Origin: an uncultured Candidatus Saccharibacteria bacterium
GTDB taxonomy: Bacteria; Patescibacteriota; Minisyncoccia; Phycocordibacterales; UBA2100
DNA length: 64,000 nt
Direction: 5' to 3'
Assembly (NCBI GenBank): GCA_964633425.1
Contig: CAZWFX010000001.1
Location: forward strand, 74,687-138,686
How positions within the stretch are numbered: position 1 is the stretch's first letter; every line of letters starts with the position of its first letter. Below are positions 17,915 through 28,538 of this stretch, piece after piece. The notes below the pieces were generated by a model that was not told the origin of the DNA, ran no database searches, and was given only the letters and a program-made list of their open reading frames with translations. Both the position numbers and the translations under genes were made by a program.

Positions 17915-19048
17915 ATGTCTAAGAAAAACCTGCACGGAGTGTTACCGGCTCAAGTTATATCTTCTCTAAAAAAGATCGGAGAAGATGCCTTTCAGAAGCA
18001 AAAAGAGCGTCGAGACGAAGCTACGTTGATTACGTTGGGTCGAGAGTTGGCATTTGCCGACTACTTGTCTTCCTCCTTAAAAGAGGCTTTCAAAACCGAG
18101 ATCCCTAAGGTTTTTCAGGCCAAAAAGCCACCAAAAGCGAAGCCTATCAGAAGGGTCCTCAACCTGGTCCTCTCCGACACCCATTTTGGAGCCAATCTAG
18201 ATCCCAGAGAGACCCGGCGTAAGTATTCTTCCGTAGAAGCAGCACGGCGCTTGGCTAAGGTTGTCCAACAGGCCATTCAGTACAAAACCGAACATCGAGA
18301 TCACACCGAACTTCTGGTTCATGTTTTAGGTGATATGCTGCAGGGTCAGCTGCACGATCCAAGAGACGGAAATCCTCTGGCGGAACAGAGCGCGGAGACC
18401 ATTTGGCTCCTAAGTCAGGCATTCAAGAGATTATCTGAAGAATTTCCCGTTGTCAAGGGGGCGTTCCAGCCTGGAAACCATGGAAGAGACAAAGCCAGGC
18501 ACAAGGAAAGGGCTGTGTATCAAAAGTGGGACTCCAATGAGACCGTTTGTTACTACGCCATCAAGCAAATTGCTGAAATGGCAAATTGGAAGAACGTAAA
18601 GTTTGCCCTACCCTATACCCCATATTACCTGATCGACGTTCTTGGTCATGGGATTTTTGGTACCCACGGAGATACTGTACTCAACCCAGGAAATCCTCAC
18701 AAAACCATCAACGTAGGCAATATCAGCAATCAGATCAATAAAATAGTGGCCGCAGAAGCCAATATGGGCTCTCTCAAGCCGAAAATCTTCGTTATGGGAC
18801 ACGTCCATATCGGAGCAGACTTCAATCTACCATCAGACATCACGGTAGTGACCAATGGTTGCCTGATTCCACCAGATCCGTATTCTTTGTCTATCGGATC
18901 GTTCGACGCCGCCTGCGGGCAGCAAATGTTTGAAACCACCGAAGAACATCCGTTTGGGGATCATCGGTACATAAGGGTCAATGAGAGGACCGATCTAGAC
19001 TCGTCGCTAGACGGCCTAATCTTGCCTTTCAAAGGTCTTGATGCGTAA
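17915..19048 (+). CDS. Calcineurin-like metallophosphoesterase (second copy; SbcD/Mre11-like or phosphatase)
   Basis: Motifs LSDTHFG (DxH), LGDMLQG (GDxxD), GNHGRD (GNHD/E), THGD, MGHVH (GHxH). Confidence 0.65.
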   Translation: MSKKNLHGVLPAQVISSLKKIGEDAFQKQKERRDEATLITLGRELAFADYLSSSLKEAFKTEIPKVFQAKKPPKAKPIRRVLNLVLSDTHFGANLDPRETRRKYSSVEAARRLAKVVQQAIQYKTEHRDHTELLVHVLGDMLQGQLHDPRDGNPLAEQSAETIWLLSQAFKRLSEEFPVVKGAFQPGNHGRDKARHKERAVYQKWDSNETVCYYAIKQIAEMANWKNVKFALPYTPYYLIDVLGHGIFGTHGDTVLNPGNPHKTINVGNISNQINKIVAAEANMGSLKPKIFVMGHVHIGADFNLPSDITVVTNGCLIPPDPYSLSIGSFDAACGQQMFETTEEHPFGDHRYIRVNERTDLDSSLDGLILPFKGLDA

Positions 19049-19443
19049 TGGTTCCCGTGGCCTTGGCCGAGCTAGATCAAGCTATCGTGGACGTCCTGGC
19101 CCATATTCAAAAAGCCAAGATCATACTTGAGACGTCAATAGCAAACATCCCTAAACTCGAAGAAAAAATCGAGGAAACTCAGGAGATGCTAGAGTCGATC
19201 CAAGAAGATTTAGATACCGTAAAGTCAAAATCCGTAGTAGATTTAATGACTTATGAGAAATTTCTGTCTAGAAAATTCACTATAGAGGATCTTATTTCAG
19301 ACTATAAGATAGAAAAGGCCAAAAACGCAAGTTTGGCCAAGACAGAAGAGGCTCGTTTGATGGAGTTACGGGCGATTCTAGCAGATCTAGAGAAATCGAG
19401 GGCTGAGTGGAATCAGGTAGTGGACTTTCCGACCAATGACTAA
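19048..19443 (+). CDS. Hypothetical coiled-coil protein
   Basis: ATGA/TAATG-type overlaps with both neighbours. Confidence 0.35.
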   Translation: MVPVALAELDQAIVDVLAHIQKAKIILETSIANIPKLEEKIEETQEMLESIQEDLDTVKSKSVVDLMTYEKFLSRKFTIEDLISDYKIEKAKNASLAKTEEARLMELRAILADLEKSRAEWNQVVDFPTND

Positions 19444-19657
19444 TAGCTATCTCGAACAGATAAAGAATCTTTTGGAAAACGATGATGACTGGATTTTTTC
19501 CAGAAGGTATGGGTTTTCTGCGTCCAAACTGGCAAAAAAATACCCGGATGGGGTTCCAGAAAAGATTCTTACTGAAGTTCTCCAGTCCACACAAGAAGAA
19601 CTTGATCAGGCATGGGAAGAGATTGTTGAAGAACTTAAGGAGATCATGAAGGTATGA
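19436..19657 (+). CDS. Hypothetical acidic protein
   Basis: ORF. Confidence 0.3.
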   Translation: MTNSYLEQIKNLLENDDDWIFSRRYGFSASKLAKKYPDGVPEKILTEVLQSTQEELDQAWEEIVEELKEIMKV

Positions 19658-20004
19658 ATGCCATTGAAGAGGTAGCAAGAGCGGCCGAAAAGGCCAAAGT
19701 GGAGCAGGAATTAGCCAACAGATCCCGAGGGCCGGTCTTTACGTCATCTAAGGACAAGATTGGACTTCCGCAAGAAGATCCTCAATATGCTTCTGCTAAG
19801 TGTAACACCTGTTATGGCAAGGGCTACGCCATCAGGCACGTCAAGCCGATAGTGTCCCCTTATGGGAATTCCTACGATCGGTTTTATGTTGTGTGTGAAT
19901 GTGTGCATAAAGGATACACCAAGATCAGACTGAAGGTTGAGGAGGGGCTCGGCCAGGGACTGACTCTTGAGGAGGCCGCTAAGAAAGCGAAGTTTGTTCT
20001 CTAG
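19654..20004 (+). CDS. Hypothetical Cys-cluster (zinc-binding) protein
   Basis: CNTCYGKGY ... CECVHKGY. Confidence 0.3.
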   Translation: MNAIEEVARAAEKAKVEQELANRSRGPVFTSSKDKIGLPQEDPQYASAKCNTCYGKGYAIRHVKPIVSPYGNSYDRFYVVCECVHKGYTKIRLKVEEGLGQGLTLEEAAKKAKFVL

Positions 20005-20032
20005 TTGACTTTCTGCCTCGACGTGCTATATT
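20005..20032 (+). promoter_or_regulatory. Promoter TTGACT-16-TATATT in front of dnaE part 1
   Basis: TTGACT, spacer ttctgcctcgacgtgc, then TATATT. The ATG at 20045 is ~5 nt past the predicted transcription start, and there is no SD. The GCTATATT belongs to the recurrent motif family. Confidence 0.45.
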
Positions 20033-20044
20033 GGGCATAGCCCA

Positions 20045-21739
20045 ATGATTAACCCACCAACATGCCACTGCCACCCTCTTAGTCTTGACACTGGAAGTCA
20101 AATCAACGACTTTATCAAGAAAGAACAAGAGCTGGGAACCGGTTACGTTACCGCCACAGACCATGGATCCATGGGATCTGCGTATCTAATTTACACAAAG
20201 GCCAAGAAGGCCTCCCTAACACCGATTCTTGGTATCGAAGTCTACCTCAGAGACCCCGACTGCGACGTCTTAAAAGAACTGACACCAAGCCCGGAAGACT
20301 ACCTTAAATTTGGCAATCCCAAGTCTAAGTACATGCACGCCACTCTCCACTACATGGACGTGGAGGCCTACGAGGCAGGCTGCTCGGTTCTTTCAAAAGC
20401 CCCAAGAGAAAAGCACGGATCTGAAGACAAGCCCATCTACACCTGGGACGATATTGCTACCCTTGGGGCCAAAAATGTCACTGGAGGATCCGGCTGCCTT
20501 ATTGGTGTGGTGCAGCGACATCTCATGGTCGGAAGACCCGACGTCGCTGAAAAATACTATGTAAAATACAAGAACATGTTCAAAAAGGACAACTTCTTTG
20601 TTGAGGTTTTCCCTCATAAATGTACCCATAACTGGGTATCTGGTGTTTTCGTTACAGTAAAAGACAGTAACGGTGAAACCAAACAGCTTAGGTTTTACGA
20701 AGAGAAAAAGCTTAAGACCAATCACTCAGAAGAGGTCACGGCCTCTAGCCTGGCTCGATCTCCAGCCAAACACACCCACTTATTGGGGATTAAGAACTAC
20801 AGGACCTGGGACGAGGTCTCTTACAAGATCGTCTCCGTAAGGCACGTAGAAGAGTTTGTTCAAAATGAGTGTACTGTAGATGCCCCAGACGGAGATCTGC
20901 AAGCCAGAGCCAACAAATTCGTTTTGCAGATGGCCGAGAAGTACGGAGACCCAGTGATCAGCTCCGATGACAGCCACTACGTAAGCCCGGAAGACAAAAT
21001 TGTTCAGGACGTGGCTCTGGCTCAGTCGGGTAAGTGGAGGTTTTTCGGTAGTTATCATAGGCAGAGCGCGGCCGAGCAGTTTGCCTGTTACAAAGAGACT
21101 TTGGGGCTTGGTGAAAGGGAGTTCGAAAAATGGACGAACAACGCTCTAGAATGGGCTTCTAAATTCAAAAACTTTGAGTTTTCTTACAAACCATCACTAG
21201 CCAATAAATTCTATCCGTCCGACACCCTTGGATACCTAAAATCCTTGATGGAAAAGCACGGAAGAATAAATAACGCACCAGAATACACCCAGCGCCTAGA
21301 GACCGAAATTCAAATGCTTCACAACAACGGCAAAATCGATTTGTTGCCGTACTTCTTTCCCGCCGAAGAGGTCTGTGAAGAGTACGCTATCAACGGAGAG
21401 CTTGCGGGGCTTGGCCGAGGCAGTGCCGCAGGGTTGCTGGTGTCGTACTACCTGGGTATTACCCACATAGATCCAATAAAGGACGGCCTGTCAATGGAAA
21501 GGTTCATTTCCATTGACCGTATTTTGGGAGGCAAGCTTCCAGATATCGACCAGGACCTTTCGTCAACAGATTACCTTGTTGGTACCGCAATAGATCGCGT
21601 TACGGTAGAAATGGAGGACGGTACCGTTAGGGAATATTTGTCTGAGGAACTCATTCAGACCGAAGAGGGCCCCATGACCATCTTCGAAGCGGCAACTAAA
21701 AAGCTGGATATCTTGGATTTGGATGAGAGTGATGAATAA
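20045..21739 (+). CDS. dnaE: DNA polymerase III alpha (DnaE) N-terminal segment: PHP domain plus palm, with an acidic C-terminal extension
   Basis: PHP His cluster (HCHPLSLDTGS...ATDHGSM...GIEVY...SDDSHY). The palm motif LAGLGRGSAAGLLVSYYLGITHIDP...ERFIS...LPDIDQD matches [23 protein letters not shown]...ERFLNPER.SMPDIDIDF. Confidence 0.8.
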   Translation: MINPPTCHCHPLSLDTGSQINDFIKKEQELGTGYVTATDHGSMGSAYLIYTKAKKASLTPILGIEVYLRDPDCDVLKELTPSPEDYLKFGNPKSKYMHATLHYMDVEAYEAGCSVLSKAPREKHGSEDKPIYTWDDIATLGAKNVTGGSGCLIGVVQRHLMVGRPDVAEKYYVKYKNMFKKDNFFVEVFPHKCTHNWVSGVFVTVKDSNGETKQLRFYEEKKLKTNHSEEVTASSLARSPAKHTHLLGIKNYRTWDEVSYKIVSVRHVEEFVQNECTVDAPDGDLQARANKFVLQMAEKYGDPVISSDDSHYVSPEDKIVQDVALAQSGKWRFFGSYHRQSAAEQFACYKETLGLGEREFEKWTNNALEWASKFKNFEFSYKPSLANKFYPSDTLGYLKSLMEKHGRINNAPEYTQRLETEIQMLHNNGKIDLLPYFFPAEEVCEEYAINGELAGLGRGSAAGLLVSYYLGITHIDPIKDGLSMERFISIDRILGGKLPDIDQDLSSTDYLVGTAIDRVTVEMEDGTVREYLSEELIQTEEGPMTIFEAATKKLDILDLDESDE

Positions 21740-21784
21740 CACTGGAGTTTTTGGCAAATTTCTGGTACTGTTCTAGGCAGACCT

Positions 21785-22051
21785 ATGGACCCCAAATCAC
21801 TAGCAAAATCCTTTATGGATCTTTCAGTTGAAGATCAGGCCGAATTCTTTCTACAATTAACCATCTTGTTCCGTAAGGTGATGCCCTCGACGCAAGAGCG
21901 GCTTCTCAAGGAACTGGCCAATAAGATTTACTTTTTGGATCACGAAGACGATTCGTACCTAAACGGTCTTGTGGTGGCTCTGTTCGATCAACACGACGAA
22001 GAAGAAAAAACCGTGTATGTGGAATCTACAAAAAATGGGCTGAATAATTGA
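21785..22051 (+). CDS. Hypothetical acidic 88-aa protein inserted between the two dnaE segments
   Basis: The ORF fills the gap exactly. No homing-endonuclease motifs. Confidence 0.3.
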   Translation: MDPKSLAKSFMDLSVEDQAEFFLQLTILFRKVMPSTQERLLKELANKIYFLDHEDDSYLNGLVVALFDQHDEEEKTVYVESTKNGLNN

Positions 22052-24331
22052 ATGAAGATAAAGGAAATCCTCTCGGTTAAAACAGAACGGAAGCCCGGAT
22101 GGCTAGATCGCCGCTTCGGAGAGCACTTTGCTCGAATTTCAACCGTTACTACCAGGAAGCTGAAATATGCCATCAGGGACGTCGCCCGCTTTACTTACGG
22201 CAAGGGCATGATCCCGTATGACATCGAGCGACTGGCCAAGGCCATTCAGACTCCACCACAGGGCGTGAACGACTACGACTTCGTATTCGGCTATGAAGAG
22301 GCAGGACGTTTCGTTGAGGGTACGATAAATACTGACCCAGCTCTAAAGGAGTATGTCAAAAAATACCCTAACCAATGGAAGATTGTAGTCAAATGCCTTA
22401 GCTTGGTTAGAAACAGCTCGCTACACGCCTGTGGTTATGTAATCGCCTCCAGGCCAATCCGGGAGTTTATGCCGCTCTCTTCCATAAAGGGAACTGAGTG
22501 TACAGAATTCACGGCTAATTCATCAGACGGGATATCTTCCGTTGAGGGCGTAGGCGGCATCAAATACGACTACCTTAAACTAAACTCTCTAAAAGATGTT
22601 CAGATTGCAGTTAAACTAATACAAAAACGATCTGGACTTCAAATACCTGATTTTATTACAAAAAATGGGCGATGTCCAAAGGTCAGGATCCTACCATACA
22701 AAGGCCAATTAGAAGACATCTGGACGTCGTTACCTGAAGAGCCTGAAGTTTTTTCGGACATTTCCAATGGGGATACGGAGTCTGTTTTTCAGCTTTCTAC
22801 TCAAGGAGCCTTGAAGTGGCTGAAACTTTTTAATCAGGTAGGAAGGGACGAAAAGCCACTAATCTCGTCTGTAAGAGATATCGCTATTTTTACAGCCCTA
22901 GATCGACCAGGGCCGCTCGATATCGAGCTTACCAATCCAGAAGACGGGTCTAAGCACAACGCCTTGGTTGAGTACGTGAGAAGGGCCAGAGGACTGCCTC
23001 CATCAGAGGATATTTTGGAGGTCTTTGACAAACTTTTTCCTGAGACCAAAGGGATTCTTGTTTTCCAAGAACAGCTCCAGAGAGCATACCAGACACTCAC
23101 AGGCTGTTCTGGGGCTGAGGCCGATGAGTTCCGCTCAAACGTCGCCAAGAAGAGGGCGACCAAGGTGGCGGCCGCTTACGAGACGTTCGTTAAGCGGGCT
23201 GGGCAAATCCTTGGATCTGAAGAAAAGGCGGCTCAGGTATTTCAAGCTTTCGGAACCTGGTCAAACTATGGGTTCTGCCTAGCTCACGCCGTTAGCTACG
23301 CAAGACTTGCGTACGTTATTGCCTTTCTTAAGCGTCATTTTCCACTTGAATGGTGGACGGCCGTGTTGTCAAACGCCACCAAGGACGATATCTCCGATAA
23401 GTTCTGGCCAAAATGCTCAGAGATTATTGATTTGCCAGACATGTCAAATCCAAGAGATCGATTCGATATCGTAAATGAAAGAATTCAAGCCCCAATAGGA
23501 ATGCTTTGGGGTGTCGGCGGCAAGGCTCAAGAACAAATAGTCGCTTTTGCCCCATATTCTACAATCGATGAGTTTTGTGGTGGTATCCAAAAGTACAAGG
23601 AGCTAAATGCTATCACCACAACCGAAACAAAAGAAGTTAAGGGCGTGGTGAAGACTGTTTCTAAAAGGCGTCTTGGAAGATCGGCTGTCCATTCTGGTGT
23701 CGTGTACTCGCTCGTTGTCTCGGGAGCTATGGACAGCCTGTTTGAGCCAGGCCTTACCCTTGAAGAAAAGCTCCTGGCATACGAAAAAGCCATTGCCAAG
23801 GCCTCTGGAGCAAAAAAACACAAACCAGTCAAACCACAATTTAAGGATCTGAACGCCTACAACCAATTCCTAATGAGGAAGAAGCTCTTGCCAGTCTTTA
23901 CACAGAGCCTTCCAGATCTAATGGTAGACTGTAAACATCCATTAGTTTCAACTACTTATGGCAAACCCAGGTACAAGATAGCCGATCGGTTTGTGGACTT
24001 ATGGGGACTTAAGGAGCTTCGGCAGTTTGAAGAACACGGAAGTTCCATTCCGTCCGGAGGCTACCGAGCCGCCATTCCAGGATACGTCTCTAGCGTTAGG
24101 CGTTTTACGTTTGATGGCAACAAGGAAGCTTGTGCGATTGCTTTGAATATTGAGGGCGTCAATCAAGAATTTGTTAAGTGGCCGGATTGGAACTCTAAAA
24201 AGCTAGATCCGCGATACGACGCGGATCTGGAAAAGAGTCTGCTAGTTTTACATGTCGTAAAGCGACGTGAAGATCGGCCGTTCGTCGTTGAAAACTTTGA
24301 GGTTTTGGCCTCTAATCAAGCAAAACCGTAG
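22052..24331 (+). CDS. dnaE: DNA polymerase III alpha (DnaE) C-terminal segment: fingers and downstream domains
   Basis: [24 protein letters not shown] matches DnaE [46 protein letters not shown] matches R.TGxHAAGVVIS..PL...VPL. Confidence 0.8.
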   Translation: [759 protein letters not shown]

Positions 24332-24362
24332 GGATTAAAGACACTTAGGCTATATCCTAAGT

Positions 24363-27300
24363 GTGACACCAGAAGAAAAACAGCAGCTTGAGCGCCAGCT
24401 CCTGTTCACTCCTTGCAAGACAAAGGAGGAGCTGGGGGACTGGATAGATCACATGCTGGGGTATCGGTTACCCGACTGCATTGTTGACGCCGACTCCAAC
24501 TCCTCTCCATTAGATCTTGTTTGGGAGATCTACCACGAAGCTCTCTACGTAAACAATCCAAATTTCGAAAAGATTCTAGCATACGCGAACAGATTTGGCG
24601 CGAAAACCCTGGGCGCTAGTGCCCTAGAGCTTTTGATGGTCTTTCATGACCAAAGAGACGTTGTCCACCTGGCTGCCATTGAGGAGCAGTCAACAGACTG
24701 CCTCAACTACGTTAAAAAGGCACTCCGCAATCCCGTAATGGCACCTTTTGAGGTTCAGGGAGATAAACGAGCCATTACGATCCAAGTCTTTAAAAAAGAC
24801 GGTAAATACTATTCCCCTAAGGAATATGAAAAAATCCCGGATGTAGAAAAGTTTGGGTTTCAGGAGTATTTCAATAAAATTGAAGTCATTGTGGCGACTC
24901 CAAAGTCGCTCAACGGGAAGCATGGCGCTTTCTTTTGTATTGATGAAAATACACCATTACTAATAGCAGATAAAACCAGATCGAGGAAAAGTCGGTCGGC
25001 CAAATTTGTCTTTAACACCATAGCCGGGCTCCCGGTAACAGGCAGGAGGGGTCGTCTTCCTATAGAAGATCTTGACATTTCTAACCCACAAAAGGATATT
25101 GAACTACTTACCTTCAATTTCTCTACAGGAAGCCTGGAGCCAAAGAAGATCCTTCGCGGACATCGTAAAAGGGCACAAACGATAAATATCGTGGCGGGCA
25201 AGAGGAGTTTGATTTGTACGCTAGATCATCCCATCTTTGTATTCGGGAAAGGCTTCACAGAAGCCGGTGCTGTGTCTCTAGGAGATAAGATTCTCGCGAT
25301 CGGCAAGGGTGGCTGGGGAAATCGACAATTCCTGTCAAAGGAGATTCAAAACAAAGATTCGATCATACGAGATCCTGGAGATCTATTTGAGCAGGTCGTC
25401 TTAGGTTCTCTCCTTGGCGACGGATCTTGTCTAAAACATACTCGCAGCAAAAACGCTTATTTTTCTGAACGACACTGCATTGAGCAGGCTGAATATCTAA
25501 ACTGGAAACGTCAGATAATTGGTCAGCAAGTAAAAACCTCAGAATGTAAAAACATAGCCAGCGGGTATACCGGGAATCCTCAAGCTGGATTCTATACACA
25601 AAATAGTCATATATTTAACCAATGGTTAGGATTTAAGCAGAACTTTCAAAATCTCGAAAAGATTAGTCCCATTGGACTTGCAGTTTGGTATATGGACGAC
25701 GGGTACGCTAAAGGATTTAGTATAGCTTCTCATGGGTTCACTAAAAATCAAAATGAGAGACTTGTTGAAATTCTTTGGAATAAATTTCAAATAAAAGCTA
25801 GAGTTGCTAGAGAAGTTAAGAAAGACGGAAGATCCTATTGGTATATAACAGGAGGATTAGATGCAAAAAAACGCTTGGTAGAAATTTGTCGTCCATACAT
25901 ACACCCACAAATGGCGTTCAAGTTTGATATAGAAAGTCACTCCAAACAGTGTGTCGCTTGTGGTCATAAATTTTGGCCACATCAGCAAGGACCAAGTTCA
26001 AAAACTTGTGGACAGGCCGTATGTCTGTCGGTCCTAGCGGGTACATTTGAAGCCGTGTCTGTCGATAGAATTGAACCTGCAGGAGAAAGAACCGTTTATG
26101 ATTTTACGGTAGAAAATAACCACAATTTTTTCAGTGGACAGATCCTTAGCCATAATTGTATGGACGAAACAGACCTTCTTGACAACGAGTCTATCGTCCA
26201 AGAAGCCGACGGAGTACCCACCCCAACAAAAGATAGAAGAGCCAAGCACCCGATCGTCTATATGACATCTACCAGAAAGAAGGCGGCGGGTAGGGTCCAG
26301 AAGCTTATTGATAGGGCAGAGCAAGAAGACATCCGTGTTAGACACTGGAACTTGATTGACATCACAAAACCATGTCCCCCAGAAAAACACCAACCAAACG
26401 AACCTAAGGTCTCGATGTATGTGGACGACAACGCCCTCAAGGCCATCCCAGAAGAATCATACGAACAGCTAAACGAAGGCGATCGACTAAAATATCAAAA
26501 ACACGAGATGTTTCAGGGCTGTAAGTCCTGCCCATTGGCCGCCACTTGTAAGAGTCGGTTGGCTACTCATCAAAAATCCAGTAATTCTACACTCTTACTG
26601 GATCACGCATTCACCACCAAAAAGGTAACTAAGGGAAATATTGAATTCATTAAGTCGCAGTTTCTATGCAGGAAACCGCTGTCTACCGGATCTATCTTTT
26701 CTAGGTTTAGCAGAGAAAGGCATTTACTTTCAGCGGCTGAGATCTATGAAAAGCTAGAGCAGCAAGAGGCCCCAGCCAACTTTAACAAGCAAAGTCTAGT
26801 CAAGTATCTAAAGGCTCATCCACTGGCCAAATTTTACGGTGGTATTGACTTTGGTTACACCCACATGTTTGTTGCTATAGTCGCGGCCAAGGTCGGTCTC
26901 CACTGGTTTGTATTGGACTGCCTTATGGCCACCGAGTTGGAGACCATGGAATGCGTGGATTTGTGCAAGAGATCCTTTTATCATTACGGAGCTGAATGGT
27001 ATCCGGATCCTGAAAATCCACAACTTATAAGTACGTTTAAAAAGCATGGATTTAATTGTATCGATTTTTCCAAGAAGAAAGGGACGGTCTTGGCTGGAAT
27101 TGAGGCGATTCGAGCAAAGCTCAATCCTGGACCAGATGCCGAACCTCAAATGTTCTTTCTGAAGGGAGATCCTTCTATTGACGGGGAAGAAGAGTCTTTA
27201 GTGGAAGCCATGGAAAAATGGGCCTGGAAGTTGTCTCCTGCCGGAGAGCCGACAGACATCCCTGCAGAAAAGCATAAGGACCAATGCTTTACGTCAGATA

Positions 27301-28538
27301 CGGAGGTACTGACCCCATCTGGGTGGGTTTCCCTTAAGGACATCACAACAGAGGATGAGGTTTTGTCTATTACCAGAAACGGCGTCGCTTATTTTGAAAA
27401 ACCGTATCGGGTGATCCATCAAACATATTCTGGACCTATGATTTCAATTCATAAAAATCATTTAAAGTTCAGCTCAACTAAGGGACACGCCCATTCCGTA
27501 ATAAGTCAATTTAACTGGAGGGTAAAGAAGAGATGGATTTTTGATAAAAAGACGTTCGATGAACTCCCGGCTGAGTCTTATTGGGCTAACTCGTTCAAAG
27601 AAATTGCTGAAGGTCCGGGTCTGTTTGAGGGAGGACAAGACGAGGCCTGGGTTGCTGGGTTTTGGGTTGCCGAGGGATGCTTTGATCGGTCCAACCCAAC
27701 TCAAATTCTAATAGATCAAAAAAAAGAAAAACACAAAAAAGAATGTCGTGAGAGGCTTAGCCGTCTCGGGTGGTCATATTTTGAAAAGACAAGAGCACAA
27801 GATCGGCTTATGACTAGGTTTTGTATTAATAGTCAAAGAGATCGAATAGTTAAATGGAAAGAGTGGTTTAATCATGGAGCCAAGAATAAAAAACTCAATC
27901 CGGGTATTGTTTTACAAATGACAAAAACGGAACGTCGCTCGTTTTTTGATGGATATATGGCAGGAGACGGCTCTACGACCCAAAGTCTTTGGCATTTTGA
28001 TTCTATTTCCAGAGATCTTATTGATGGAATCCAATTTTTAGCGTTGTGCCTTGGATATGGATGTCGTGTAGTTACCTATGACTGTATGAGAGAAGATCGT
28101 CCTTCTACCCTTAAGGGTAAGATGCATCGATCATGGAGAGGACATGTTTTAAGATCTAGACCTGTTTGTCATATCAAAAAGAGTAGTTTTTTTGAATGGA
28201 CGGCTAAAGACATTGAGGTTCACTGTGTTTCCGTATCCACTGGGATCTTTTTGGCTAGAACCGCAGGAGATGTCTTCGTGGCCGGAAACTGTGACGCATT
28301 GCGTTATATGGTTTACAACATCACTCCGGTAAGGGCCACAACCGGCAACCGAGGAGGCCGACCTACCAACGAAGAGGTGGCCTCTAGGCCCAAAACCCTG
28401 TCAGAGCAATTTTGGGATACCATGAAATCAGAAGGCGAGCCTCTTTTTGGCCTAGATATGTCAGAAAGGCCGGATCCTTATGACACAGACCCGTCGTCCG
28501 GAAGGCCGTCGCCGAAGATCCGTAAGAGGTTCTTTTAG
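24363..28538 (+). CDS. Terminase large subunit (TerL) interrupted by two inteins; about 649 aa of extein
   Basis: Extein: deviant Walker A ANRFGAKTLG. The Walker B GAFF|CMDE is reconstituted across intein 1. RNase-H-like nuclease motifs YGGIDFGYTH and KHKDQ|CDALRYMVYN are reconstituted across intein 2. GTG start preceded by GGCTATAT inside a hairpin. Confidence 0.75.
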   Translation: MTPEEKQQLERQLLFTPCKTKEELGDWIDHMLGYRLPDCIVDADSNSSPLDLVWEIYHEALYVNNPNFEKILAYANRFGAKTLGASALELLMVFHDQRDVVHLAAIEEQSTDCLNYVKKALRNPVMAPFEVQGDKRAITIQVFKKDGKYYSPKEYEKIPDVEKFGFQEYFNKIEVIVATPKSLNGKHGAFFCIDENTPLLIADKTRSRKSRSAKFVFNTIAGLPVTGRRGRLPIEDLDISNPQKDIELLTFNFSTGSLEPKKILRGHRKRAQTINIVAGKRSLICTLDHPIFVFGKGFTEAGAVSLGDKILAIGKGGWGNRQFLSKEIQNKDSIIRDPGDLFEQVVLGSLLGDGSCLKHTRSKNAYFSERHCIEQAEYLNWKRQIIGQQVKTSECKNIASGYTGNPQAGFYTQNSHIFNQWLGFKQNFQNLEKISPIGLAVWYMDDGYAKGFSIASHGFTKNQNERLVEILWNKFQIKARVAREVKKDGRSYWYITGGLDAKKRLVEICRPYIHPQMAFKFDIESHSKQCVACGHKFWPHQQGPSSKTCGQAVCLSVLAGTFEAVSVDRIEPAGERTVYDFTVENNHNFFSGQILSHNCMDETDLLDNESIVQEADGVPTPTKDRRAKHPIVYMTSTRKKAAGRVQKLIDRAEQEDIRVRHWNLIDITKPCPPEKHQPNEPKVSMYVDDNALKAIPEESYEQLNEGDRLKYQKHEMFQGCKSCPLAATCKSRLATHQKSSNSTLLLDHAFTTKKVTKGNIEFIKSQFLCRKPLSTGSIFSRFSRERHLLSAAEIYEKLEQQEAPANFNKQSLVKYLKAHPLAKFYGGIDFGYTHMFVAIVAAKVGLHWFVLDCLMATELETMECVDLCKRSFYHYGAEWYPDPENPQLISTFKKHGFNCIDFSKKKGTVLAGIEAIRAKLNPGPDAEPQMFFLKGDPSIDGEEESLVEAMEKWAWKLSPAGEPTDIPAEKHKDQCFTSDTEVLTPSGWVSLKDITTEDEVLSITRNGVAYFEKPYRVIHQTYSGPMISIHKNHLKFSSTKGHAHSVISQFNWRVKKRWIFDKKTFDELPAESYWANSFKEIAEGPGLFEGGQDEAWVAGFWVAEGCFDRSNPTQILIDQKKEKHKKECRERLSRLGWSYFEKTRAQDRLMTRFCINSQRDRIVKWKEWFNHGAKNKKLNPGIVLQMTKTERRSFFDGYMAGDGSTTQSLWHFDSISRDLIDGIQFLALCLGYGCRVVTYDCMREDRPSTLKGKMHRSWRGHVLRSRPVCHIKKSSFFEWTAKDIEVHCVSVSTGIFLARTAGDVFVAGNCDALRYMVYNITPVRATTGNRGGRPTNEEVASRPKTLSEQFWDTMKSEGEPLFGLDMSERPDPYDTDPSSGRPSPKIRKRFF
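24936..26156 (+). mobile_element. Intein 1 in TerL (407 aa) with a LAGLIDADG endonuclease, inserted at Walker B
   Basis: Block A CIDENTPLLIADK. LAGLIDADG-like LGSLLGDGSCL and LAVWYMDDGYA. Block F/G TVYDFTVENNHNFFSGQILSHN. +1 Cys. Confidence 0.75.
27285..28289 (+). mobile_element. Intein 2 in TerL (335 aa) with a LAGLIDADG endonuclease, inserted at the nuclease catalytic Asp motif; non-canonical C-terminal GN
   Basis: Block A CFTSDTEVLTPSGW. LAGLIDADG-like WVAGFWVAEGCFD and FFDGYMAGDGS. C-terminal ...DVFVAGN with +1 Cys. The penultimate residue is Gly where His is usual. Confidence 0.65.

Follow-up and report, generated by a model that had tools for sequence, protein, structure and literature searches.

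Why should the gene for a replicative DNA polymerase be found in two pieces, with another gene lodged between them? The question is raised by a dnaE locus within a stretch of 64,000 nucleotides (nt) of contig CAZWFX010000001.1 (assembly GCA_964633425.1, positions 74,687 to 138,686 of the forward strand), deposited under the name of an uncultured Candidatus Saccharibacteria bacterium. The whole stretch is called the window here, and positions are counted from its first letter. Three open reading frames (ORFs) on the plus strand, delimited from the ORF list and the sequence, make up the locus: ORF A (20045-21739, 564 amino acids, or aa), encoding the N half of DnaE; ORF B (21785-22051, 88 aa), between the two halves; and ORF C (22052-24331, 759 aa), encoding the C half. 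The answer that we favor, with a probability of about 70%, is that this is a two-gene dnaE with what is left of a split intein, dead for splicing and reduced to a half-HINT lobe, on either side of its break, and that the remnant serves as a noncovalent clasp between the two polypeptides.

A polymerase domain cut in two

Pfam recognizes in ORF A a PHP domain (PF02811, E 9e-19) and positions 17-110 of the 260 positions of DNA_pol3_alpha, and in ORF C positions 122-250 of the same profile and the fingers domain (PF17657, E 5e-18). Since the first stretch of the profile lies in ORF A and the second in ORF C, a single DNA_pol3_alpha domain has been cut in two. The sequence LPDIDQD of ORF A (aa 498-504, nt 21536-21556) aligns to PDFDVD of E. 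coli Pol III alpha, in an alignment that ends at residue 406 of the E. coli protein, and IKYDYL of ORF C aligns to KMDFL, the third-aspartate motif, of Mycobacterium tuberculosis DnaE1. The catalytic aspartates of the E. coli enzyme we take to be D401, D403, and D555. Two of the three are therefore supplied by ORF A and the third by ORF C (aa 173, nt 22568-22570). Together the ORFs possess the PHP domain, the fingers, and the three-aspartate palm of a C-family polymerase; what they do not possess is a catalytic core within a single polypeptide.

The preliminary description of this DNA, made from the sequence alone, had recognized a dnaE in two ORFs with an 88-aa gene between them, and the ORF list and the Pfam matches bear this out. 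It had also reported a gap of 312 nt with an acidic ORF in it, and the gap does consist of a noncoding spacer of 45 nt (21740-21784, plus strand) and ORF B, with a net charge of -8. Its boundaries, however, need to be redrawn. The closest annotated phage, Myxococcus phage Mx1 (48% identity), has one contiguous DnaE of 1289 aa, and comparison with that protein shows where host sequence stops and resumes. On the side of ORF A it ends with ..LSSTDYLVG, the nine residues after the catalytic motif, which match FPDRDLLIH of Mx1; in ORF C it resumes with GWLDRRFG. The acidic extension of 58 aa described at the end of ORF A is thus real but was measured differently: of the 60 residues past the motif, the first 9 are host and the foreign tail has 51. 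Also, ORF C does not start precisely with a conserved DnaE segment, as had been claimed, its first 12-15 residues or so being foreign. The host part of ORF A, from Pfam and the alignments to the E. coli and Mx1 proteins, is aa 1-513 (20045-21583), comprising PHP and the N-terminal palm, and that of ORF C, from Pfam and the alignment to DnaE1, extends from 22097 to 24331, comprising the remaining palm, the fingers, and the C-terminal region. The break falls in the palm domain, about 10 residues past the PDIDxD catalytic strand.

Mx1 alone among annotated phages matches the whole N half at the protein level. No relative of the locus was found among annotated phages at the level of DNA, and none in GTDB genomes, where one was sought as a clue to the host. 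The window carries the two-gene dnaE of an uncultured large phage, a distant relative of Myxococcus phage Mx1.

Is the break peculiar to this one assembly? Among the 120 relatives of ORF A listed by a search of metagenomic protein clusters, most are proteins of 550-610 aa that end in a similar tail. The corresponding search with ORF C returned both C halves of 750-850 aa and contiguous proteins of 1250-1330 aa. Of 177 N parts that could be analyzed, 83 are split at the same residue and 94 are contiguous; the count of split forms thus stands at 83 cluster representatives at least, from independent metagenome samples. Most of the split relatives lack ORF B, and their halves abut or overlap. In one (L002, 63% identity) the halves overlap by 1 nt in a TAATG junction, in another (L003, 50%) by 4 nt in an ATGA junction, and in a third (L009, 48%) by 32 nt, all three without ORF B. 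The preliminary description had proposed a genuinely two-subunit DnaE as one of its explanations and a comparison with related phages as a check, and the recurrence of the same split, with halves that abut or overlap, speaks in favor of the proposal.

A second of its explanations, a group I or group II intron carrying the small ORF, does not survive. A scan of 19000-25500 on both strands with the covariance models of Rfam gave no match at E<=1, and there is no room for an intron at the junctions of L002, L003, and L009, because the halves abut or overlap there. Nor is the predicted RNA fold of the 45-nt spacer significant (z = 0.32). Something might be said for joining the halves during translation, since ORFs A, B, and C share one reading frame and only two stops, TAA (21737) and TGA (22049), stand between them. 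The homologues of ORF B in two relatives (L006 and L008), however, sit in another frame, so the shared frame in the window is a coincidence; this, together with the overlapping junctions, disposes of readthrough of one long frame. The C halves begin throughout with Met-Lys-Ile or Met-Lys-Val, a conserved start that is consistent with independent initiation. More generally, any joining at the level of RNA or translation, be it by intron, readthrough, frameshift, or bypass, has to contend with overlaps of 1, 4, or 32 nt in differing frame relations, and a sequencing artefact or pseudogene with the recurrence of the split in many independent assemblies and with purifying selection on all parts of the locus. 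We regard this whole group of explanations as having practically no chance of being right. The split is neither an artefact nor an intron nor a recent disruption.

Probable remnants of an intein on both sides of the break

The foreign tail of ORF A (aa 514-564, nt 21584-21736, followed by the TAA stop that ends at 21739) has a net charge of -12 and contains a motif common to the family, ..V.E.E.EDG[TS]......V.T..G.MT..EA...G.D...W. A profile of 47 positions was made from 67 diverse tails from which host residues had been removed, and in these D12, G13, T26, G29, and A36 are nearly invariant. When the profile was compared with the sequences of all PDB chains, the best 14 matches were all split inteins, with E values from 1.6e-6 to 6e-6: those of Npu, Ssp, and related DnaE proteins, and gp41-1. 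Profile positions 2-45 align to intein residues 52-97 or thereabouts, the block B region of the N-terminal intein fragment (IntN). Matches to the genuine IntN fragments of relatives reach E values as low as 4.9e-10 (at the same database size) and lie 44-56 residues past the residue Cys1; these fragments lie at a different site of dnaE, ..SRHAC/LPAGE.. (a slash marks the junction). Judged by this homology, which extends over only part of the HINT domain, the acidic extension of ORF A is intein-derived. The preliminary description was right that intein boundary residues and a recognizable endonuclease are both absent, but it overlooked the nature of the extension.

Weak matches to the tail profile (E 0.02-2) also appear within the PHP/N-terminal region, at about 20640-20745 of the window (ORF A aa 200-235 or so) and in the same region of many relatives. 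The segment is rich in beta hairpins, e.g., GVFVTVKDSNGETKQLRFYEEKKLKT, and the match may represent a chance likeness of small beta motifs or perhaps another inserted element.

The elements required for splicing are missing from the tail. There is no Cys, Ser, or Ala of block A, the entire first lobe of about 50 residues being absent, and the residue after the host sequence ..LLVG varies among relatives (T, K, W, Y, E...). Thr-x-x-His of block B is absent as well: where genuine inteins of the relatives retain T[AP]DH, the window shows L and E in place of Thr and His, and the profile of 67 sequences reveals no conservation at the aligned positions.

On the other side of the break, the N-terminal strand of ORF C (22052-22096, plus strand, net charge +3), called the head here, was delimited by its conserved start. 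The form MKI[KVT].[IL] is kept in about 45 C halves, and the head may be likened to the first strand of the C-terminal intein fragment (IntC); compare MKIIESRDVG..VVLHN/CGYVIAS of a member of the family (P0123). Blocks F and G, the terminal Asn, and the nucleophile at position +1 are not to be found: only 12-22 residues precede GWL..RFG, and HN is not among them. A profile of tail plus head can be followed across the junction into IntC only with gp41-1 and with a single Npu construct (4kl6).

The two pieces were also considered as a unit. AlphaFold2 was given a direct chimera of the tail and head of the window as a single sequence, an alignment based on the natural fusion P0035 (see below) having misaligned tails. 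The predicted module consists of four short strands, one helix, and a strand, with the head as one long strand placed beside the strands of the tail (predicted local distance difference test score, pLDDT, 60-78). A Foldseek search of the PDB with this model returned inteins for all of its top 27 matches, over about 60 aligned columns at a root-mean-square deviation of 2.7-3.5 Å. The HINT fold is composed of two units related by C2 symmetry, and the natural split site, according to the structure of gp41-1, lies inside the second unit; the fragments associate through charged strands in what has been termed a "capture and collapse" model (bioRxiv 10.1101/546465). The remnant would correspond roughly to the second HINT unit, the 51-aa tail being the second half of IntN and the head of some 12-15 aa the first strand of IntC, so that the two together would form about one of the pseudosymmetric lobes. 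Contigs allowed 15 tails to be matched with their heads, and the charges are opposite in every pair: from -4 to -12 for the acidic tail and from +1 to +5 for the basic head, with -12 and +3 in the window.

Both C halves and tails fall into two length classes that covary. Tails that end in ..KPWW.. with long C-terminal extensions are paired with heads of 20-28 aa (MK[IV]K.ILRSS...FPGW), and short tails ending in ..D[IV]..WL with heads of 14 aa. The pairing of classes suggests, as far as sequences go, that the two pieces have coevolved. In one relative (P0035, 912 aa) they are found naturally fused, the tail followed in the same chain by an 18-aa linker and an MKKVEM head, and another (P0090, 956 aa) has an acidic insert of low complexity at the break site, in which a faint EGEDGS motif is discernible. 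The two proteins suggest that the module is a retained structural domain, able to decay further, and they may represent stages of the loss of the remnant.

Purifying selection acts, by the substitution patterns, on the tail and, strongly, on ORF B. Comparison with the closest relatives (L004 and L005, 85-89% identical) finds synonymous sites saturated, with nonsynonymous divergence (dN) of 0.058 for the host part of ORF A and 0.043 for the start of ORF C. Over the 51 codons of the tail there are 12.5 nonsynonymous and 28.5 synonymous differences from L004/L005. For ORF B, compared with L005, dN is 0.068 and synonymous divergence (dS) is saturated.

Might the remnant be instead an extremely reduced but still active trans-splicing element, ligating the halves by some noncanonical chemistry? 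Its homology is to split inteins, after all; it adjoins a catalytic motif, as is typical of inteins; and active inteins occur elsewhere in this genome and in its relatives. But there is no nucleophile at what would be the first residue, the Thr and His of block B are replaced in the window, blocks F and G and the terminal Asn are gone, and no Cys, Ser, or Thr stands at position +1. Moreover, the remnant's 65 or so residues amount to half of the smallest known HINT domain, and the natural fusion P0035 keeps the module in its chain. Activity of this kind strikes us as very improbable. Since the other lobe and all catalytic elements of splicing are gone, the two polypeptides would not be ligated.

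What the remnant and ORF B may do

If the halves are not ligated, what brings them together? According to our model, ORF A and ORF C would be translated separately, and the acidic tail and basic head would pair by strand complementation, in the manner of split-intein fragments. Kept together by this pairing, the halves would form a composite active site, to which ORF A would contribute two aspartates and ORF C the third. We infer that the remnant mediates the association. As to history, an intein at this site would have been fractured to give a split intein, which then ceased to splice and was cut back to the segment needed for association.

It is possible that the remnant is instead a vestige with no role in assembly. 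The halves would then meet through the large native interface of the palm, and tail and head would be merely tolerated or put to another use (solubility, translational coupling, contacts with the holoenzyme). There is a precedent in the NrdA protein of Aeromonas phage Aeh1, whose element-derived tails are dispensable for formation of the heterodimer (Crona et al. 2011, PMC3045599). Also, many close relatives have a contiguous DnaE with just a loop of 4-10 residues at the break site. A mere vestige, however, would not be expected to conserve structural positions of the tail in 67 diverse sequences, to show so few nonsynonymous changes beside saturated synonymous ones, to preserve opposite charges in 15 of 15 pairs, or to keep an MKIK strand that is predicted to pair with the tail. 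We consider the vestige improbable, though by no means negligible.

Several observations weigh against the clasp. The first concerns its ancestry. Neighbor-joining trees built from the N parts cluster the split forms (28 changes of state, where shuffled states need about 59) and place the window in a clade of 11 that is purely split, but the split state is never monophyletic, requiring 23-31 changes across 100 bootstraps. In the tree, split forms are interleaved with contiguous ones, and one ancient origin could account for this only with many losses or exchanges. The interleaving could reflect repeated loss through fusions like P0035, recombination among phages, or the limits of the method at 40-50% identity. 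Second, no complete intein was found at the exact break site among 240 proteins of the family, and because no relative with one was found, the series of decay is only inferred. Third, the likeness of the head to IntC does not by itself reach significance, and scores against fused inteins did not rise when the head was added to the profile. Fourth, the structural model comes from a single sequence, its mean pLDDT is 48.8, and the Foldseek E values are weak (7e-3 or worse). Finally, by analogy with Aeh1 NrdA the role of the remnant could differ from simple tethering.

ORF B presents a different problem. It is acidic, and its TGA stop is followed directly by the ATG with which ORF C begins. A search of 1.8 billion representative proteins yielded only four clusters homologous to it, and those homologues whose loci were examined (L005, L006, and L008) directly follow a DnaE N half. 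Its carriers are lineages with N halves at least 65% identical to that of the window; it is absent from the relative at 63% (L002) and from L003 and L009. AlphaFold2 predicts four helices (pLDDT 64). ORF B found no match in Pfam, PHROGs, a profile search of the PDB, or a fold search of BFVD; a scan of IMG/VR found no relatives; and BLAST detected no similarity to the zinc-finger/HNH-like ORF that intervenes at another break in L006. By its sequence, then, ORF B would not qualify as a homing endonuclease, even though it occupies, by analogy, the slot of the free-standing homing-endonuclease genes of fractured genes.

The preliminary description had offered disruption by an inserted gene as its third explanation, and one can imagine that ORF B is a mobile element that recently broke dnaE and brought the extensions along. 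Its place is exactly at the junction, with the 45-nt spacer on one side and the downstream ATG directly on the other, like that of an invading endonuclease gene, and its homologues at the loci examined occur nowhere else. But the split and the remnant are present in dozens of lineages without ORF B, L002 included, its carriers are confined to the shallow subclade at 65% identity or more, and no endonuclease motif or fold could be matched. That ORF B broke the gene is therefore very unlikely. It did not cause the split; it is a shallow, lineage-restricted addition of later date, maintained by selection. One might speculate that its fixed position reflects some link to the junction or to expression of the polymerase.

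A bolder version of the clasp would make the half-HINT remnant of about 65 residues an autonomous, exapted heterodimerization module, exchanged repeatedly among phage dnaE genes, with ORF B acting upon it, for example as an assembly factor or a regulator of reconstitution of the polymerase. One lobe of a split intein would then be enough to reassemble an enzyme across its active site, and the interleaving in the tree would be a sign of the exchange. We hold this to be a minor possibility.

Genuine inteins are not hard to find in the vicinity. The genome of the window is intein-rich. The gene after dnaE (24363-28538) is an ORF of 1391 aa with two LAGLIDADG inteins (24936-26156 and 27285-28289), with boundaries CIDENTP...ILSHN/C and CFTSDTE...VFVAGN/C, the removal of which leaves a host protein of 649 aa. 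We think that this protein is terminase-like, by analogy with relatives, in which it is positioned ahead of the portal gene. The homologous gene in L005 encodes 1842 aa and has additional intein matches.

Within dnaE itself there is a second intein site, LHAC/GYV (ORF C aa 124-130, 22421-22441), which is empty in the window. The C half of L005 (85% identical; L005:1568-4897) carries an intein with LAGLIDADG matches, its exact position unmapped. The LHAC/GYV site of L006 (L006:2008-5365) holds a canonical fractured split intein, so that the dnaE of this relative is broken twice. At its first break, an N part with the remnant-type tail is followed by a homologue of ORF B and a part starting MKIKAIL. 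At its second, ..LGQHAC/LPAGE.., an IntN with Cys1 and TPDH is followed by a free-standing ORF of 298 aa, with zinc-finger matches and by eye HNH-like, and by a part that begins with the IntC ..VVLHN/CGYVIAS. The latter is exactly the arrangement of fractured genes (Dassa et al. 2009, PMC2677866). Many other relatives have N fragments that end in ..RHAC/LPAGE...

The start of ORF A was described as having a near-leaderless promoter and an inverted repeat. A consensus scan does find a sigma-70-like site, TTGACT-16-TG-TATATT (20005-20032, plus strand, with an extended -10, scoring 10/12), about 12 nt before the ATG, in a stretch (20005-20044) that reaches up to the start codon; the inverted repeat TGGGCATAGCCCA is present also and overlaps the start, the whole arrangement occupying 20005-20047. 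Such a site would give a very short leader. Promoter-like sites are no more common in the region, however, than in shuffled sequence. L004, which is 89% identical, keeps the two hexamers and the greater part of the inverted repeat (in the version with a 4-bp stem), but L002 does not. No obvious Shine-Dalgarno sequence precedes ORF A or ORF C.

The locus beside known split genes and inteins

The layout of the locus has a close parallel that the preliminary description overlooked. In fractured genes, the N part of an enzyme with IntN is followed by a spacer of 27-51 nt, a free-standing endonuclease gene that meets the downstream start, and IntC with the C part of the enzyme; three of the loci described are phage-like dnaE genes (Dassa et al. 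2009, PMC2677866). Here too both parts occur at one locus in order and orientation, the N part ends in a tail derived from IntN, the C part begins with residues derived from IntC, the spacer of 45 nt is within the reported range, and an intervening gene ends right where the C part starts. The flanking intein halves, however, are remnants: the intein is reduced to about 65 residues without any splicing residue, and the products are expected to remain unligated. The intervening gene is not a recognizable endonuclease and is absent in most relatives. The locus thus lies outside the active split inteins and shares with fractured genes a part of their features.

With the split inteins of Npu and Ssp DnaE and of gp41-1 the remnant shares homology over residues 52-97 or so, a similar predicted fold over some 60 residues, and a split point that falls within the same lobe. 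The charges, too, are distributed as in Npu DnaE, with an acidic N piece and a basic C piece (bioRxiv 10.1101/546465). It differs from all of these in that the first lobe (residues 1-51, with Cys1) and blocks F and G are missing, and no trans-splicing is expected. Unlike the dispersed genes of the Npu and Ssp proteins, the genes here are adjacent, and the insertion is in the palm, after PDIDxD. The split intein of cyanobacterial DnaE is inserted in the fingers, at FNKSH.

Aeh1 NrdA offers a different kind of precedent. Insertion of mobE into the gene for this enzyme left two fragments with derived tails that are essential for activity, though not for formation of the heterodimer (Crona et al. 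2011, PMC3045599). In both cases an essential phage enzyme related to replication is encoded by two adjacent genes, and an active site is assembled from fragments; the Aeh1 tails originated from a mobile element and restore function without splicing of either RNA or protein. They are unique, however, and have no homology to inteins, while the tails considered here form a recognizable half-HINT module spread over a large clade of phages. Also, mobE is a recognizable HNH endonuclease.

Polymerases of family B provide a third comparison. Methanothermobacter makes its PolB from two genes that have no intein; the PolB of Nanoarchaeum has a split mini-intein. In these, as here, the catalytic subunit of a replicative polymerase comes from two genes, with the break at or near an intein insertion site, but they belong to another polymerase family and another domain of life. 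For the intein-less PolB, no interface formed by an intein remnant has, to our knowledge, been described.

Cyanobacteria and fractured phage genes, then, have already provided split dnaE genes whose split inteins are active, and enzymes fragmented by endonuclease genes and rescued by tails are known as well. The literature that was searched yielded no split intein that had shrunk to one noncatalytic lobe and been conserved, across a large clade of phages, where a replicative polymerase is broken. If our reading is true, the locus represents a natural end point of a selfish element, which lost splicing and half of its fold and was kept as the subunit interface of an essential polymerase of two polypeptides. 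The hundreds of phage "DnaE fragments" in metagenomes (550-610 aa and 750-850 aa) are probably functional two-subunit enzymes and not pseudogenes. The locus also offers a test of whether charged capture strands and the second HINT lobe can fold and bind alone, and perhaps a small, natural, orthogonal tag for heterodimerization. Published models of gene fracturing and of split inteins do not include a stage in which a split intein becomes a nonsplicing clasp; this locus would supply such a stage.

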